In this document: piece after piece, positions 26,394 to 64,000 of the stretch
How positions within the stretch are numbered: position 1 is the first letter of the stretch
Layout: each line of letters opens with the position of its first letter
DNA from: Paracoccaceae bacterium
GTDB lineage: Bacteria > Pseudomonadota > Alphaproteobacteria > Rhodobacterales > Rhodobacteraceae
Assembly (NCBI GenBank): GCA_965116235.1
Contig: OZ220496.1
Location: 2,782,693 to 2,846,692, forward strand
Length of the DNA stretch: 64,000 bases
Reading direction: 5' to 3'
Made by a program: the position numbers and the translations under genes
Notes under the pieces: model-generated
Databases searched by the model: none
Seen by the model: the letters and a program-made list of their open reading frames with translations, nothing else
Told to the model about the DNA's origin: nothing

Positions 26394-27551
26394 CTACATG
26401 ATTCCGTCCACTTCTTTCGGCTGCACGATTCCCTTATCTTGAGCCGTTTGGATTGTAAACCGGTCCGTCATTCCAGCGATGTAGTCACCGACCAGTCTTC
26501 GGCGGCAAAACCGCCCTTCATCGATTCGGCCCTGCCAATTTTCGGGCAGGCTGGAAGGGTTTTCCAGATAATAATGAAACAGCTTTGTCAGAAGGCCCTG
26601 AATCCTGGCCTTTTTGCCCTTAATCAAGTCGCTATGGTACAAATTGGCTTTCAGATAGGCACTGATCTCCCTGAGATAATCAAGGCCGTCGTCAGAAAAG
26701 GCGATGACCGGCTTGCCGTAGAGACGAACTTCTTCGGTATTGGCAAAGGCGTTTTCATCCAAAATGCGTTTCGATTCTTTTGTGATATCGCCCATGAAGT
26801 AATTGAACGTTTGACGAATGACGTTGGCCCTTAGCCGATGACTGTCGACTGTCGGATTGTCACCTTCCAATGATGTACATATGCAGCCAATGAGCCGCAG
26901 CTGCCTTGCGTCGTCCAAATCGATGACTCCAGCCCGCATGCCATCATGCAGGTCATGCGAGTTGTAGACTATGTCATCGGCTAGAGCCGCCACTTGCGCT
27001 TCACAACTGGCGTGAACACCCAATCGAAGGTCGTGACGCTGGTTATAGTGTGCCGTAATGAAGGGTATGTCCCGCGTTACCGGACCATTATGCTTGGCAA
27101 TTCCTTCCAAGCTGGCCCAAGACAGATTCAAACCGTCAAAACCAACATACGGGCTCGACAGATAGGTTACGATTTGCAGGGCTTGGGCATTATGATTGAA
27201 CCCTCCCACCCCGGCAAGCAGGCTGTCCAGTATGCTCTCTCCCATATGTCCGAAAGGGGGATGGCCAATATCATGAGCCAAAGCAATCACCTCAGCCAAT
27301 TGAGGATTCAACCTCAGTTGCCGGGCAATCGATCGTGATGCTCGCGAAACTTCAATCGTATGTGTCAGACGTGTACGAAAGTGATCCCGGTTCGAGGCAA
27401 TCCAGACCTGTGTCTTATCGGTTAAACGTCGAAATGCTGTAGTGTGAACGACACGGTCACCATCACGCACAAACGGTGATCTGTCATCAAAGGCCGCTTC
27501 GCGGTACAACCGGCCCGGATCAGTCTTGGCACTGACGGCACAATCACGCAA
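26394..27551 (-). CDS. dgt: deoxyguanosinetriphosphate triphosphohydrolase-like (HD domain) protein
   Basis: FRTRLTHTIEV, LAHDIGHPPFGH and DDIVYNSHDLHDG are HD-domain dGTPase motifs. The start is a TTG. Confidence 0.9.
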   Translation of the reverse strand: MRDCAVSAKTDPGRLYREAAFDDRSPFVRDGDRVVHTTAFRRLTDKTQVWIASNRDHFRTRLTHTIEVSRASRSIARQLRLNPQLAEVIALAHDIGHPPFGHMGESILDSLLAGVGGFNHNAQALQIVTYLSSPYVGFDGLNLSWASLEGIAKHNGPVTRDIPFITAHYNQRHDLRLGVHASCEAQVAALADDIVYNSHDLHDGMRAGVIDLDDARQLRLIGCICTSLEGDNPTVDSHRLRANVIRQTFNYFMGDITKESKRILDENAFANTEEVRLYGKPVIAFSDDGLDYLREISAYLKANLYHSDLIKGKKARIQGLLTKLFHYYLENPSSLPENWQGRIDEGRFCRRRLVGDYIAGMTDRFTIQTAQDKGIVQPKEVDGIM

Positions 27552-55765: not shown

Positions 55766-56788
55766 ATGGAGTTTGGATTCATGATGGATGAGAGCCTTTT
55801 CGGAGTCCGCGACAAGCGTGGACATTGGCGACCCTTCAGGCGAGTCAAGTACCCGCCGTTGTTCACTTGGCCCGTCAGGATTCGTCCCCTTTTGGCGTGG
55901 ATATTTCGCTGGAATGGCTACATTTACCCGTACAACCTGCTGTATGCTGTCGTAGGCATCCTGGTTTGGACCTACCTGACCCCCGACCTGTCAACGATGC
56001 AGTCATTTGGCTTCGACTGGGTTCTTTTCATCCTGCTCAGAAATGCCGGCATCATGACCCTTTGGTACGGCCTGTTTCATCTGCGTCTATACATTGTCAA
56101 GGGCCAGGGAACCGCGTTCAAATATAACCCCAAATGGCCGGAAACCGACAGTTCCGGTTTTCTGTTTCGAAATCAAACCATCGACAATCTGATCTGGTGC
56201 TACTTCAGTGCCTTGCCTCTGTGGACTGCATATGAAGCGGCAACCCTTTGGATGATGGCAAACGGATTTATTCCTGTTTTGGCCTTCACCGAGAATCCGG
56301 TGCTGTTTGTTGCACTATTTTTTGCCATTCCACTGTTCAGAGAAGTTCATTTTTACTTTATCCACCGACTGATCCACTGGCCTCCACTCTATCGTGCCTG
56401 CCACAAGGTTCATCATGCCAACTCCAATCCAGGTCCTTGGTCGGGATTGTCCATGCATCCCGGAGAACATCTTATTTATTTTTCAAGTGTCCTGTTGCAT
56501 TGGATTGTTCCCTCGAACCCGGTACATGTCGTATTCCATATGGTTCACCTGACCATGTCACCACCTGTGACTCATTCGGGATTTGAAAAGGTCGTTCTGG
56601 ATGATGGCAAGGCTGTCGACACCAATGCATTGGCTCACTACCTTCACCACAAGTATTTTGAAGTGAACTATTCTGATGGAGCCGTGCCACTTGACAAGTG
56701 GTTCGGATCGTTTCATGACGGGTCGCCGGAGGGCGACAAGCTGGTCCAGCAAAGGTTAAGACACCTCAAGGCTCGATCCGTAAAATAG
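55766..56788 (+). CDS. fatty acid hydroxylase / sterol desaturase family membrane protein
   Basis: Histidine boxes HFYFIHRLIH, HKVHH and HYLHHKY, with several TM segments. Confidence 0.85.
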   Translation: MEFGFMMDESLFGVRDKRGHWRPFRRVKYPPLFTWPVRIRPLLAWIFRWNGYIYPYNLLYAVVGILVWTYLTPDLSTMQSFGFDWVLFILLRNAGIMTLWYGLFHLRLYIVKGQGTAFKYNPKWPETDSSGFLFRNQTIDNLIWCYFSALPLWTAYEAATLWMMANGFIPVLAFTENPVLFVALFFAIPLFREVHFYFIHRLIHWPPLYRACHKVHHANSNPGPWSGLSMHPGEHLIYFSSVLLHWIVPSNPVHVVFHMVHLTMSPPVTHSGFEKVVLDDGKAVDTNALAHYLHHKYFEVNYSDGAVPLDKWFGSFHDGSPEGDKLVQQRLRHLKARSVK

Positions 56789-56852
56789 CGACGATTCTCA
56801 ATATCTTGGTTAACCGCTCCACCTGTTGCCTGAATAACTGGTTTTGAAGGCT

Positions 56853-56862
56853 GGGGGGGGGG
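56853..56862. repeat. G10 homopolymer in a convergent intergenic region
   Basis: Read directly: GAAGGCT-G10-ACGAC, between the stops of 55766-56788 (+) and 57007-57678 (-). Confidence 0.9.
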
Positions 56863-57006
56863 ACGACTTTGTAGGGTTGAAACGTTGTCATTGGCAGGCT
56901 CTGGGAGCCAAGACACCAATTGTTGTCCGTTCCGTCTTGGAACTTGCTACCGGTGCAGCGTTGCTGTCGTCAGATTGCCATGTTTCTGAAATGAAGCCAA
57001 CATCCA

Positions 57007-57678
57007 TCAGTTTTCATGGGAAACCGGCTCGAAATCAACCATGTCACGTGCTGTTCGGGCAATGAAAAGCCCGACGATTCGAGTTTGCGGGAATCGCTTT
57101 GTTAAGATTGACTTTGCGGCTCGAAAATGTGCACCCGTTGTCAGGACGTCATCGACGATGACAATTCGTTCTTGAACGGGCATAATGCACTGCTTGTCAT
57201 CAACACGATATAGATTTTCGATCTGCTCAGGACGCATCCGCTCTTCTTTAACATGAACCGATTCTGTACTCGCGATCTGAACAATGAGTTCGCGGATATC
57301 AAGAGGTGGAGTGGGACGAATGGAATTTAGCATCCGTACCATTCGGTCATCGTAAAGGGGATCATCTTTTGCCTTTGATGGTGGAATCGGCACAAAGGTC
57401 AGGCGGTCCAGAACTTTCAGCAGGGCAGATTTAAACGCGGTTGCAGTCTCTCGAATAGCCTTCTCTTTGTATTTCCACTCCGGCAATCCACGACGGTCCG
57501 TCGGTTTCTTGAAGTTTATTATCAGTTGATTGGTCGTACTGTGCCTGTACCCCTCACCGGCACTATATTCACCGAAAAAGCAACACGCATCGTCATCATT
57601 CAGATACCAATGGTCTTGACGTGTCAGTTGGTCGATCTCAGTCAGACGATGTGGAAAGGTATTGGCAGATTTCATCAT
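57007..57678 (-). CDS. phosphoribosyltransferase-domain protein (ComF-like PRTase core without the N-terminal zinc finger)
   Basis: PRPP loop RIVIVDDVLTTGAHFRAAKSIL near the C-terminus. The ATG ATG at 57678/57675 is preceded by AAGGA. The longest track ORF (to 57783) would overlap the upstream gene by 146 nt. Confidence 0.75.
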   Translation of the reverse strand: MMKSANTFPHRLTEIDQLTRQDHWYLNDDDACCFFGEYSAGEGYRHSTTNQLIINFKKPTDRRGLPEWKYKEKAIRETATAFKSALLKVLDRLTFVPIPPSKAKDDPLYDDRMVRMLNSIRPTPPLDIRELIVQIASTESVHVKEERMRPEQIENLYRVDDKQCIMPVQERIVIVDDVLTTGAHFRAAKSILTKRFPQTRIVGLFIARTARDMVDFEPVSHEN

Positions 57679-58552
57679 AATCCTTGACACGTAAGGCACC
57701 TTTATTGGCAAGCCTGTCGGGCCACCTGAGGCGCTGATCTTGGAAGCAACTGTCAAGAATGAACAGCTTGCGGCCCTGTTCAAGTGCCGCGCGGGCTTGA
57801 ATGAGTGTACCCGATGTCTCCCCGGCCTCCACGATTATGGTGGCTTCGGTGAGAGCCGACATGGTTTTGTTCCGTTCTGGAAAGAACAGGCGATTCTGCC
57901 GATAATCCTGAGATTCGTAGCGTATGACTGGCACTTGGCTGATGACCAAAAAGTGTTCGGCGATCTGACTTTGCAACTCGGCGTTCTCTTTCGGATAGAC
58001 ATGTGACAATGGGGTACCTACGACTGCGATCGTCCGCCCGTTCTCCTCCATAGCGGTTTCATGAGCCATGCGGTCAACTCCAGCCGCCAAACCGGAGACA
58101 ACTGTGAAGCCGTCCTGCACCAAATCGCTTACCAATCGTCTGGTATAGGCAAGTCCTTGTTGCGACGGCTTACGGGTGCCGACCACGGCAACCGAGCGCG
58201 AAGCCGTCAGGTCCCACCAACCTTGATAGTAGAAGCATTCGATAGGATGTGCCGCATCACGGAGTTTATCGGGATACTCGGCTGAGCCGTGAACCCGCAC
58301 CCCAAACCGCCCAACTCCGGCTTCTTCAAACTTCTGCTTGACGCGGTCGGCATACTCATAGGCACGGTCGACGGAAACGAAATCTGACGGAAGGCTGTCG
58401 GGGTAGCGGGCAAACCGTTGAGACAAGGACCTGAACGTTGTCTTCGGTTCTGTCCACAAGACTTCGTATGCCCCCATCTCCAAAAATGGAGAAACCGCCA
58501 GACTTTCAAAATCCGGTCGGCCAAGTGGGAGTTCTGCCGTCATCCCTTGCAC
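57638..58552 (-). CDS. DprA/Smf-like (SLOG Rossmann fold) protein lacking the C-terminal winged-helix extension
   Basis: VAVVGTRKPS...VVSGLAAGVDRMAHETAL..GRTIAVVGTPLSHVYPKEN...FPERNKTMSALTEATIIVEAGETSGTLIQARAALEQGRKLFIL matches the DprA core. 304 aa. Start is the GTG at 58552 or the ATG at 58543. Confidence 0.8.
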   Translation of the reverse strand: MQGMTAELPLGRPDFESLAVSPFLEMGAYEVLWTEPKTTFRSLSQRFARYPDSLPSDFVSVDRAYEYADRVKQKFEEAGVGRFGVRVHGSAEYPDKLRDAAHPIECFYYQGWWDLTASRSVAVVGTRKPSQQGLAYTRRLVSDLVQDGFTVVSGLAAGVDRMAHETAMEENGRTIAVVGTPLSHVYPKENAELQSQIAEHFLVISQVPVIRYESQDYRQNRLFFPERNKTMSALTEATIIVEAGETSGTLIQARAALEQGRKLFILDSCFQDQRLRWPDRLANKGALRVKDYDEICQYLSTSSD

Positions 58553-58652
58553 CTTTATAGCTGGTCTTGGCCTTCCAAGGCCAACCCTTCTCTTTCCAAC
58601 ACCAAAAAAGGGGAATTATACGCCTGTTCACCTAAAATATTACGGAATGCAC

Positions 58653-58726
58653 TGGAGGCGAGTACCGGAATTGAACCGGTGTACACGGTTTTGCAGACCG
58701 CTGCGTAACCACTCCGCCAACTCGCC
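58653..58726 (-). tRNA. tRNA-Cys (anticodon GCA)
   Basis: The reverse complement is GGCGAGTTGGCGGAGTGGTTACGCAGCGGTCTGCAAAACCGTGTACACCGGTTCAATTCCGGTACTCGCCTCCA. Acceptor GGCGAGT/ACTCGCC, loop CTGCAAA, discriminator U, encoded CCA. Confidence 0.9.
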
Positions 58727-60517: not shown

Positions 60518-62104
60518 CTACTTTTTCTTGACCTTGGGAACGATTGAGGATTGTGATGCCGCCGATGGCAATGGCAACACCTTTCGACTGTCGTTCTTTG
60601 GCGATTGCTCTTGGTCTGGAGGCTGTGGTTTATCACCCGCAATCACGTGGGTTATTTCTTCGCCGGTGAGGGTTTCATATTCAAGCAGTCCCTGCGCAAG
60701 CCGTTCGAGATCCTGCCTCTTGTCGGTCAGTATCCGCTTCGCCTGCACATAGCCCTCATCAACAATGCGCCTGACTTCCTCATCGATGAGTTCTTGGGTT
60801 TCAGGACTGACGCTGCGACCGGACGCGACCGGACCCAGATAGGTATCCTGTTCAGTCGAATAGTCAATGCGTCCCAGCTTGTCTGACATTCCATAGCGAG
60901 TGACCATGTCTTTCGCCAGTTGAGTCGCCTGCTTGATGTCGGATGCCGCCCCGGACGTGATATTGTCATCGCCGAACACGATCTCTTCGGCTACTCGTCC
61001 TCCCATCGCCATGGCAATCATGGACTGAAATTTTGTGACTGTCACCGTCAACTGGTCGCGTTCGGGCAAGCTGAGAACCAGTCCCAAAGCTCTCCCTCTG
61101 GGAATGATGGTGGCCTTGTGAATCGGATCGTGCTGTGGCACATTGAGACCGACAATCGCATGGCCGGCTTCGTGATAGGCGGTCAATTCCCGTTCTTCCT
61201 TGGTCATGATCATCGAACGCCGCTCTGTCCCCATGAGAATCTTGTCCTTGGCATTCTCAAAATCAACCATGGTTACAAAGTCTCGCCGCACTCTGGCCGC
61301 TATCAGGGCCGCTTCATTGACTAGATTCGCCAAGTCGGCACCCGAAAAACCAGGGGTTCCGCGTGCGATCGTCTGCAGGTTCACATCACTTCCGAGGGCA
61401 ACCTTGCGGGCATGAACTTGCAAAATTTTTTCTCTGCCAACCAGATCAGGCGTCGGCACGACGACCTGACGATCAAACCGGCCGGGCCGCAACAGTGCCT
61501 TGTCGAGTACATCCGGACGATTGGTCGCTGCTATGATGACGACTCCGTCATTGGCTTCAAACCCGTCCATCTCGACCAGCAACTGGTTCAGAGTCTGCTC
61601 ACGCTCATCATTGCCCCCGCCGATACCAATCCCGCGGGAACGACCAACGGCATCAATCTCGTCAATGAACACGATGCACGGCGCATTCTTCTTGGCTTGA
61701 GTGAACATGTCTCGCACCCGCGATGCGCCCACCCCCACAAACATCTCGACAAAGTCCGAGCCGGAAATGGAATAAAAGGGAACATTGGCTTCGCCGGCGA
61801 TGGCCTTGGCCAGCATGGTCTTCCCTGTTCCCGGCGATCCAATCAGCAAGGCACCTTTGGGAATTTTTCCTCCCAAGCGAGAAAAAACATTCGGATTCTT
61901 CAGAAAATCGACGATTTCCTCGAGTTCTTCCTTGGCTTCGTCGATACCGGCAACATCGTCAAAGGAGACCTGAGTTCGATCTTCGGTCAGAAGCCTGGCT
62001 CGGGACTTGCCATAGCCGAATATGCCGCCCATCCCTTGTGACTGCTTCCGCTGAAGATAATACATCAACAGCAAGAACAACAATCCCAGTATCAGACCGT
62101 TCAT
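60518..62104 (-). CDS. FtsH-family ATP-dependent zinc metalloprotease paralog lacking TM1 and the periplasmic domain
   Basis: 528 aa. It begins at a single TM ([17 protein letters not shown]) that aligns with TM2 of the upstream ftsH. Walker A GSPGTGKT, Walker [10 protein letters not shown], second region of homology (SRH) [20 protein letters not shown] and HEAGHAIV are all intact. Confidence 0.9.
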
Positions 62105-62192: not shown

Positions 62193-64000
62193 TCACTGGA
62201 GCGACTCATCACTGGCATTGTCCCGAGCCATCTTTTCTTCTTGCCGCGGACGGCGGCTCGTTGTCGGCACCGTAAAGATTCGTTTTTGATCGGCTGGAGG
62301 CGGATCATCATCCTTGGTCAAGGGCTCGCCCTTCAGCACCTTCTCAATATCCTTGCCGGTCAAGGTTTCATATTCAAGCAAGCCTTGCGCCAACCGTTCC
62401 AGATCATCCCGCTTCTCAATCAGGATGGCCTTGGCGGTGTTGTATCCCTCTTCCACAATCTTGCGAACTTCAGCATCTATGATCTCCAACGTGTCCTGAC
62501 TAGTGTTCGCCTGCGTCGAATACGGCCCAAGAAATGACTGTTGCTCGTTGGCATAATCAATATTTCCCAGCTTTTCCGACATCCCGAACTGCGTGACCAT
62601 CGCCCGGGCAATGCGCGTTACCTGCTTGATGTCGGAGGCCGCTCCGGAAGTTACATTTTCGGGGCCGAAAACCAGTTCCTCAGCCACCTTTCCACCCATG
62701 GCCATCGCAATCTTGGATCTGTATTTCGTAATGTTGACGGACAACTGGTCGCGCTCAGGCAGGGCCAGAACCAATCCGAGCGCCCGTCCTCTTGGTATGA
62801 TCGTGGCCTTGTGAATCGGATCATGCTGCGGGACGTTCATGCCGACAACGGCGTGACCGGCTTCGTGGTACGCTGTGAGTTTCTTTTCATCTTCTGTCAT
62901 GACCATTGATCGCCGTTCAGCCCCCATCATGACCTTGTCCTTTGAGTTTTCAAAATCGAGCATCGTGACAAAACGCCGGCCAACACGAGCGGCAAGAAGG
63001 GCCGCTTCATTGACCAGATTGGCCAGATCGGCACCAGAAAAACCCGGTGTGCCTCGTGCAATGGTACGAAAGTCGACATCCGGACCCAGCTTGATGTTTC
63101 GGGCATGAACTTCCAGTATCTTCTCCCGCCCCGCAATGTCCGGATTGGGAACGTGAACCTGTCGATCAAATCGGCCGGGGCGCAACAGTGCCGGATCAAG
63201 GACGTCGGGACGGTTCGTTGCTGCAATTATGATTACGCCTTCATTCGCCTCAAACCCGTCCATTTCGACCAGCAACTGGTTCAGGGTCTGCTCGCGCTCA
63301 TCGTTGCCACCCCCGTAGCCAACCCCGCGTGATCGCCCGACAGCATCAATCTCGTCAATGAATACGATGCACGGCGAGCTTTTCTTGGACTGTTCAAACA
63401 TGTCCCGAACTCGTGAGGCACCGACACCGACAAACATCTCGACAAAGTCCGATCCAGAAATCGAAAAGAAAGGAACTCCGGCTTCGCCGGCAATGGCTCG
63501 GGCCAAGAGAGTTTTACCTGTTCCGGGTGGCCCCACCAGCAAAGCCCCTTTCGGAATTTTTCCCCCGAGCCGGGAAAACTTGGCCGGGTCGCGCAGGAAC
63601 TCGACGATCTCCTCAAGCTCCTCCTTGGCCTCATCGATTCCTGCCACGTCCAGAAAGGTCACCTTGCCCTGACGCTCCGTCAACAACTTGGCCTTTGACT
63701 TGCCAAATCCCATCGCGCCGCCCCGGCCACCACCCTGCAAGCGATTCATCAGGAACAACCAGAAGGCTATCAGAAGAATGATGGGCAGAAACGGACCAAC
63801 GAACGACATGAAACCGCTGGGCTCTTGCGGCTCAACCTCGACAGCCACATCGTTTTCAAGAAGATATCCAGACAGATCATACCCGCCCGGGGCAATGGTC
63901 TTGATTCGTTCGCCTGATGTCGTGGCGGCGTGAACTTTTTCGCCATCAATGATGACGGCACTGATTTCCTCTTCATCGACGAGTTGTATGAAGCCTGAAA
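62193..64000 (-). CDS. ftsH: ATP-dependent zinc metalloprotease FtsH; 5' end beyond the window
   Basis: [31 protein letters not shown] and HEAGHAVV. The frame stays open upstream of the track start (63848) to the window edge, through periplasmic-domain-like sequence (...[49 protein letters not shown]). Confidence 0.93.

Follow-up and report, generated by a model that had tools for sequence, protein, structure and literature searches.

Shosta (ShosTA) is an already named and studied toxin-antitoxin system, characterized in E. coli APEC O1 and the P2-like phage P2_4C9 (PDB 8ZVA-8ZVD, 9VZO, 9W2P/Q), where shosA is followed by shosT on the same strand. Its antitoxin, ShosA, consists of a SAM-like and a Rossmann domain without a winged helix and binds ssDNA and RecA (PMC11961720, PMC12961424). 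The toxin, ShosT, is a 424-aa protein that combines an N-terminal pyrophosphatase (PPase)-like domain (residues 1-164), whose contribution to toxicity in E. coli is only marginal, with a phosphoribosyltransferase (PRTase) domain, and mutation of D331/D332 in its PRPP loop abolishes toxicity (PMC11961720). Modules with such a long toxin protect against T7, lambda and SECphi phages.

Several other systems share single components with Shosta. DprA and ComFC are the DprA-like and PRTase-fold proteins of natural transformation, and ComFC carries an N-terminal 4-Cys zinc finger. PsyrTA/RqlHI likewise employs a DprA-like antitoxin, and other phage-defence systems also use a toxic effector with a PRTase fold. 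In the window analyzed here, a stretch of 64,000 nucleotides from a Paracoccaceae bacterium, two adjacent genes very probably form a Shosta toxin-antitoxin anti-phage module of a short-toxin type, which entered by horizontal transfer as an islet of two genes next to the 3' end of tRNA-Cys. In the literature we found no experiment on this short-toxin type; the functional studies that we found all concern the long ShosT of E. coli. In the following sections, we compare the pair with the described systems, summarize its insertion site and distribution, and weigh alternative readings.

Gene layout and protein features

The minus strand of the window carries two intact, overlapping open reading frames, as described in an earlier note on this sequence. 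The first, shosA (57638-58543), encodes the DprA-like protein and ends in a TGA codon (57640-57638). Read from the publicly annotated start (ATG, 58543), its product has 301 aa and is 100% identical to public protein P0137; the length of 304 aa given in the note holds for an in-frame GTG (58552), not for this ATG. An AAAGGTG Shine-Dalgarno sequence precedes the gene. The second frame, shosT (57007-57675), encodes the PRTase-like protein, which has 223 aa when read from the first ATG (57678) and 222 aa when read from the second (57675), so that the previously given 224 aa exceeds the actual length by one or two residues. The public record starts at the second ATG, and the 222-aa product is identical to public protein P0001. 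The 3' end of shosA and the 5' end of shosT overlap by 38 nt (57638-57675), or by the 41 nt stated earlier when counted from the first ATG. The Shine-Dalgarno sequence of shosT (AAGGA, 57685-57681) is indeed located inside shosA, just upstream of the overlap. The layout is one of translational coupling in which the antitoxin gene comes first, and an overlap of 38 nt is also present at three other loci (L001, L002 and L091). The P2_4C9 genes have the same order, but are separated by one base.

The leader of shosA contains a candidate promoter and operator (58563-58620, minus strand), comprising a perfect TATAAT (58620-58615) and a palindrome, TTGGCCTTGGAAGGCCAA (58584-58567), which was flagged as a hairpin. 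These elements may provide the pair with its own promoter and operator; the consensus scan called no promoter in the leader because the -35 element is weak.

Profile searches assigned both proteins to Shosta. ShosA matches the PADLOC ShosA model PDLC03961 (E 1.3e-97; residues 24-300, profile positions 20-294 of 303), and ShosT matches the PADLOC ShosT model PDLC03962 over profile positions 2-215 of 237 and residues 12-216 of its 224-aa reading (E 3.2e-48). The characterized E. coli/P2_4C9 ShosA (2.4e-85) and ShosT (1.8e-53) are recognized by these models as well. These full-length matches, together with scores below the NCBIfam cut-offs for DprA and ComF, bear out the earlier proposal of a nucleotide-centred conflict or defence module, and since Shosta is already named and studied, the defence reading is no open hypothesis. 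The pair is a typical representative of this known family, with a toxin of the short form. The models specific for E. coli fit less well, with a weak match of ShosA to PDLC02997 (5.6e-26) and no match of the toxin to PDLC03012. ShosA also matches the PsyrA model (3e-26), but far more weakly than the ShosA model, and its partner is not PsyrT-like and matches ShosT only. In contrast to other defence systems with a PRTase-fold effector, the partner here is a DprA-like protein and the window contains no reverse transcriptase or ncRNA; the Rfam search of the window returned two tRNAs and nothing else.

The Pfam domain DNA_processg_A (PF02481, 6e-60) covers residues 85-289 of the 304-aa reading of ShosA, so that a C-terminal winged helix would not fit, in agreement with the absence of this domain reported before. 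The AF2 model comprises an N-terminal helical (SAM-like) domain and a Rossmann/SLOG domain, and its top Foldseek matches are S. pneumoniae DprA (3uqz, 4e-15) and E. coli ShosA (8zva, 9e-13). Both of these proteins have the same SAM plus Rossmann layout, so the DprA-like protein should not be called truncated, as it had been. The suggestion of nucleotide sensing in the manner of the SLOG protein ThsA also finds no support: E. coli ShosA is an antitoxin that binds ssDNA and RecA, and the Thoeris ThsA SLOG/STALD model PDLC00412 gave E 0.033 and 11 bits, too weak to count as a match. ShosA scores below both NCBIfam DprA cut-offs (TIGR00732, 174.5 vs 191.15; NF008007, 138.9 vs 495).

ShosT is the more divergent partner. 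At 222 aa, it is much shorter than E. coli ShosT and lacks the N-terminal PPase-like domain, which the general PADLOC profile does not need; its AF2 model (pLDDT 86) shows a PRTase fold only. Pfam gave sub-threshold matches only, around the PRPP loop VIVDDVLTTGAHF (E 0.008), in line with the earlier remark that this loop is the sole recognizable feature. Within the loop, D175/D176 are invariant among 37 homologues (alignment A1) and align with D331/D332 of E. coli ShosT, so the Asp-Asp pair is common to both toxins; the PRPP loop and the predicted catalytic pair of the short toxin are intact. Short and long ShosT align at the PRPP loop only (BLASTP E 0.29; hhalign probability 1%), and they are linked only by the PADLOC profile, which is broad, and by a modest resemblance of the short-toxin model to the E. 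coli ShosT structures (8zvd and 8zvc; Foldseek 3e-4 and 1e-3; TMq 0.45). The top Foldseek match is H. pylori ComF (7p0h; E 2e-5, TMq 0.51, 221 aligned columns). ShosT contains three cysteines, of which C31 alone is conserved in the family, so the protein has no 4-Cys zinc finger, as had been observed, and its score is far below the comF cut-off (TIGR00201, 25.5 bits vs 233.55; E 1e-5). A PDB sequence search with the single ShosT sequence gave no match, the family profile retrieved nothing beyond the generic PRPP loop of APRTs (E ~0.3), and PHROGs returned matches only to families of unknown function. Clustered at 50% identity, the short toxin family comprises 2,367 representatives, of which 738 have E <= 1e-30; its members are nearly always ~205-225 aa long.

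Insertion site and distribution

The pair occupies the slot between the 3' end of tRNA-Cys and a convergent gene, as previously proposed. The tRNA-Cys(GCA) gene (58653-58726, minus strand; ARAGORN; Rfam RF00005, 64.5 bits) forms the right-hand boundary of the insert with its 3' end, and shosA sits 109 nt downstream of it. The convergent gene (55766-56788, plus strand) is an FA_hydroxylase by Pfam. Between the two lies a 1,864-nt (~1.9 kb) segment (56789-58652) that consists of a 218-nt spacer, shosT, shosA and the 109-nt leader. Three related contigs (L083, L084 and L085) lack this segment at the syntenic site; they carry the FA_hydroxylase gene, tRNA-Cys, folD, MOSC and an ftsH-like gene, contain no gene between hydroxylase and tRNA, and have only 13-18 nt between the hydroxylase stop codon and tRNA-Cys. 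The three contigs represent one fairly distant lineage, with a hydroxylase protein just 66% identical to that of the window. Their empty sites identify the pair as a mobile 1.86 kb islet and agree with the island insertion at a tRNA suggested in the note. On the basis of this one lineage, the two-gene islet was probably acquired horizontally at the 3' end of tRNA-Cys.

Searches at the insert found no integrase and no att-type repeat of the tRNA-Cys 3' end, and short direct repeats around it occur at chance level only. Composition is not diagnostic, with a GC content of 0.48-0.57 across the insert and ~0.50 in the flanks. Adjacency to a tRNA is not a family trait, as a tRNA is lacking within 10 kb of most homologous loci and tRNA-Cys occurs at none of them. 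In the window, the pair stands alone amid housekeeping genes, with no surrounding defence island. When the 50 ORFs of the window were scanned as a control, the only matches were housekeeping look-alikes, and a PADLOC dGTPase match corresponds to the housekeeping Dgt.

Elsewhere, the linkage of the two genes is strongly conserved. Of 80 species genomes with a short ShosT, 77 encode ShosA directly upstream of it, and the genes overlap in 76 of these 77, most commonly by 38 nt. The same gene order in so many independent genomes indicates that the arrangement is not due to chance. The pair also occurs outside this lineage, distributed patchily across phyla, and is found on 18 plasmid records and nine temperate-phage records; carriage by mobile elements is shared with E. 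coli ShosTA. A Methylomonas plasmid carries it next to Kiwa, an RM system, Vsr and MazE/PIN, and neighbours across 17 loci include pAgo, TIR-Aga, DRT, AbiEii, type IIG RM, CapP and KwaB. That homologous pairs are carried by plasmids and phages and are located in defence islands supports the defence role suggested earlier.

Proposed mechanism and alternative readings

The model for the window pair is taken from E. coli ShosTA (PMC11961720, PMC12961424). By analogy, ShosT would bind PRPP and disturb nucleotide (purine) metabolism, which may lead to replication stress, DNA damage, filamentation, and growth arrest or death. ShosA would act without binding the toxin, as in a type IV toxin-antitoxin system, and would offset the damage via ssDNA binding, RecA and recombination proteins. 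Phage infection could tip this balance, either as ssDNA replication intermediates flood the cell or by host shut-off while the unstable ShosA decays, and the infected cell would then abort the infection. Toxicity, its neutralization by ShosA and protection against phages are accordingly predicted for the window pair from the E. coli system. As the short toxin lacks the PPase-like domain, PPi hydrolysis would be uncoupled from the transfer reaction.

Three other readings of the locus were weighed against this model. It is extremely improbable that the genes are a housekeeping natural-transformation pair, with DprA loading RecA onto ssDNA that enters the cell and a ComFC-like PRTase aiding DNA uptake. 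ShosA is a true DprA homologue by Pfam and Foldseek, among solved structures the two proteins most closely resemble S. pneumoniae DprA (3UQZ) and H. pylori ComF (7P0H), and the toxin has the weak TIGR00201 match. Nevertheless, both proteins score below the equivalog/subfamily cut-offs, the zinc finger is missing, and the overlapping operon is mobile and defence-linked and not a syntenic core pair, as seen from the empty site in the related contigs, the patchy, plasmid- and phage-borne occurrence and the strong matches to defence-specific models. The window contains no separate canonical dprA or comFC. In public records, the first gene bears the name 'DNA-protecting protein DprA', which also speaks for this reading, and the second is labelled 'hypothetical protein'; the practical value of the present assignment is a corrected annotation, as the DprA label suggests natural competence where a defence or toxin-antitoxin module stands. 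A selfish addiction cassette, which has no meaningful anti-phage role in its host and is kept because its loss kills the cell, is very unlikely. ShosTA was originally described as a toxin-antitoxin pair, reportedly in the 2012 paper by Kimelman; the antitoxin-first order with overlap is typical of such systems, and the cassette is alone among core genes here and frequent on plasmids. Against this reading stand the phage protection conferred by long-type Shosta and the location of short-type pairs amid defence genes and in accessory regions of temperate phages. Addiction and anti-phage roles are not mutually exclusive.

The remaining reading concerns the toxin itself, which might work unlike E. 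coli ShosT: as a ComFC-like protein, it would bind ssDNA or act on it, or modify a nucleotide or nucleic acid, instead of perturbing PRPP/purine pools, with ShosA as its direct partner. The ComF fold match, the missing PPase-like domain and the restriction of sequence similarity with long ShosT to the PRPP loop are in its favour. So is the joint occurrence of both types: a long and a short Shosta pair lie tail to tail on an R. leguminosarum plasmid, and three further plasmids hold both types within a few kb, which suggests that the two are not redundant. We nonetheless consider it unlikely, as one PADLOC profile takes both toxin forms at similar scores, ShosA is of the same kind in both, and the PRPP loop and Asp-Asp pair are invariant, which argues for PRPP chemistry. 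A broader proposal, conceivable but doubtful, is that the short ComF-like ShosT marks a Shosta subtype that works differently and is older than the long form, derived from a DprA-ComFC transformation pair that was recruited as a toxin-antitoxin defence module, with a toxin that lacks the PPase domain and perhaps has another target. The hints for it are that the subtypes share only the PRPP loop and adjoin on rhizobial plasmids.

Within the Shosta assignment, the short-type pair could show if a PRTase domain alone suffices for toxicity and defence, and the nearness of short ShosT to ComF hints at the origin of Shosta; these questions are incremental and lie within a known system.

A ShosTA operon between tRNA-Cys and a hydroxylase gene

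The interval between the tRNA-Cys(GCA) gene (58653-58726) and a convergent fatty-acid hydroxylase gene (55766-56788) contains two intact ORFs on the minus strand, which form a coupled operon with the antitoxin gene first. The upstream ORF, shosA, ends with a TGA at 57640-57638 and begins at either a GTG (58552; 304 aa) or an ATG (58543; 301 aa). Public annotation uses the ATG, upstream of which lies AAAGGTG, and the protein on record (P0137) is identical. For the downstream ORF, shosT, two neighbouring ATGs (57678 and 57675) are possible starts; the second follows an AAGGA inside shosA at a distance of 5 nt and agrees with a public 222-aa protein (P0001). An earlier note, made from the sequence alone, had correctly described an overlapping two-gene operon; its overlap of 41 nt holds from the first ATG and becomes 38 nt from the second, and its protein lengths of 304 and 224 aa were slightly off. 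Two elements in the stretch leading from tRNA-Cys to shosA (58563-58620, minus strand) may represent the operon's own promoter and operator: a perfect TATAAT at 58620-58615 and the 18-nt palindrome TTGGCCTTGGAAGGCCAA at 58584-58567. The 218-nt spacer separating the hydroxylase and shosT stop codons contains a ten-G run (56851-56860), which could be prone to sequencing errors or slippage.

Pfam searches identified a DprA domain in the first protein (residues 85-289 of the 304-aa reading, 6e-60) and only sub-threshold phosphoribosyltransferase (PRTase) matches in the second, around VIVDDVLTTGAHF. The PADLOC models for ShosA (PDLC03961, 1.3e-97) and ShosT (PDLC03962, 3.2e-48) match the first and second protein, respectively, over almost their full length. 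The literature describes ShosTA (Shosta) as a toxin-antitoxin system directed against phages; defence has been demonstrated (Millman et al; Rousset et al), and its proteins from E. coli APEC O1 are the subject of two structural papers (PMC11961720, PMC12961424). The window pair is a routine instance of this known system, within reach of existing models, and the earlier proposal of a nucleotide-centred defence module was soundly reasoned and right about the class. The remaining interest lies in the short-toxin subtype, for which we found no experimental work in the literature and whose nearest solved structure is ComF.

The toxin was modelled with AlphaFold from 37 homologues (pLDDT 86, pTM 0.85); the model's best PDB match is H. 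pylori ComF (7p0h; E 2e-5, TMq 0.51), followed by E. coli ShosT (8zvd, 3e-4; 8zvc, 1e-3) and then ordinary PRTases. In the antitoxin model (pLDDT 72), five helices make up the N-terminal domain and a Rossmann domain follows as far as the C-terminus; the model matches DprA from S. pneumoniae (4e-15) and R. palustris as well as E. coli ShosA (8zva, 9e-13). The previously reported absence of a winged helix is thus borne out, but does not make the protein a truncated DprA, since this layout is normal for ShosA and pneumococcal DprA.

Short and long ShosT

The E. coli ShosTA locus was retrieved from the P2-like phage P2_4C9 with a query of ShosA residues taken from a PDB alignment. Its gene order is that of the window, with shosA (349 aa as annotated) before shosT (424 aa), and the general PADLOC models match the two pairs comparably (2.4e-85 and 1.8e-53 in P2_4C9). 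In contrast, the E. coli-type ShosT model (PDLC03012) does not match the window toxin, and the corresponding ShosA model (PDLC02997) matches the window antitoxin weakly (5.6e-26). The pyrophosphatase-like N-terminal domain (E. coli ShosT residues 1-164) is missing from the window toxin, and the alignment of short with long toxins is confined to the PRPP loop (BLASTP E 0.29; hhalign). This catalytic loop is intact: D175/D176 are invariant across the short family and align with E. coli D331/D332, and the D331A/D332A double mutation abolished E. coli ShosT toxicity (PMC11961720). The pyrophosphatase-domain mutation R56A reduced toxicity only marginally (PMC11961720), which makes a toxin consisting of the PRTase domain alone plausible.

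Insertion, distribution and mode of action

The closest contigs found (L083, L084, and L085), with a hydroxylase 66% identical to that of the window, contain in window order FA_hydroxylase, tRNA-Cys, folD, MOSC, an ftsH-like gene, and ftsH. Here, the hydroxylase stop and the tRNA 3' end are 13-18 nt apart, compared with 1,864 nt in the window (56789-58652). An integrase, a repeated tRNA end, and a clear GC shift were looked for in the window insert, and none was found. As these contigs represent one fairly distant lineage, we only infer the direction of change; gain in the window is a simpler reading than loss in the relatives' lineage, because the distribution of the pair is patchy and mobile. 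Adjacency to a tRNA gene as a family trait was rejected on homologous loci.

The short toxin family comprises 2,367 representatives at 50% identity, nearly all of about 205-225 aa. Among 80 GTDB species genomes with a short toxin, which include Alpha- and Gammaproteobacteria, Acidobacteriota, Chloroflexota, Binatia, Marinimicrobia, and others, 77 have a gene for ShosA immediately before the toxin gene and in the same orientation; the genes overlap in 76 of these 77 loci, most commonly by 38 nt, and always in the same frame relation. In the other three genomes, the toxin genes are truncated or orphan. The pair is mobile, being found on 18 plasmid and 9 temperate-phage records; it adjoins the integrase in Burkholderia phage Mana, and on a Methylomonas plasmid it has Kiwa on one side and an RM/Vsr/MazE-PIN cluster on the other. 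R. leguminosarum plasmid p3 (4461-8247 of L091) carries a long-type pair (DprA, 320 aa; PRTase, 414 aa) in tail-to-tail orientation with a short-type pair (303 and 219 aa), with genes for a serine protease and an error-prone polymerase alongside, and both types occur within a few kb on three further plasmids (CP021375.1, NZ_CP034911.1, and LR723680.1). The 132 ORFs around 17 homologous loci include strong matches to pAgo, TIR-Aga, DRT reverse transcriptase, KwaB, AbiEii, type IIG RM, CapP, and PDC-S54.

Three observations effectively rule out a housekeeping DprA/ComFC pair: this mobility, the empty site in related contigs, and the NCBIfam cut-offs, which neither the first protein (dprA TIGR00732, 174.5 against 191.15) nor the second (comF TIGR00201, 25.5 against 233.55) reaches. 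The data also fit a purely selfish toxin-antitoxin cassette, and such a role leaves room for defence. By analogy with the E. coli proteins, ShosT would bind PRPP and upset purine metabolism, and this disturbance may lead to DNA damage, filamentation, and death. ShosA would not bind ShosT, but would bind ssDNA and RecA and offset the damage; toxicity could be released by phage ssDNA intermediates, or by host shut-off together with ShosA instability. That the short toxin acts instead in a distinct, ComFC-like mode appears unlikely.

Neighbouring genes and atypical loci

When the 50 ORFs of the window itself were put through the same defence scan, the only matches were housekeeping look-alikes (the AAA domains of FtsH, a radical-SAM enzyme, and Dgt by argS). 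The ORF at 26397-27551 (minus strand) was rejected as an anti-phage dGTPase despite a PADLOC dGTPase match of 3e-84: it lies above the TIGR01353 cut-off, reaches 194 against a cut-off of 400 with the anti-phage dGTPase model, and has argS and xth as its neighbours. It is thus a housekeeping Dgt, and the PADLOC dGTPase model alone over-calls.

Truncated or orphan short shosT genes lacking an adjacent shosA, as in L017, L078, and L071, look like decayed systems; in L071, only a DprA-like ORF (30% identity) lies downstream. P0020, a 349-aa protein from a 2.5-kb metagenome contig, is a single ORF in which the ShosA C-terminus continues into ShosT; the join probably stems from a frameshift or faulty assembly and not from a true gene fusion.

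On its side away from the tRNA, the hydroxylase gene has dusA in the window, an MmeI-like type IIG restriction-modification gene and a 662-aa unknown in L083 (2687-7755), and an AAA_14/DUF4143 ATPase in L084 (6553-7728) and L085; given this variability, the hydroxylase gene seems to collect accessory genes on both sides. Beyond the tRNA, the window contains tandem FtsH paralogues (60518-62104 and 62196-63848, minus strand), of which the 528-aa protein has AAA and M41 domains but lacks FtsH_ext and the membrane N-terminus. This tandem (526 and 643 aa) is kept in L083 and L084.
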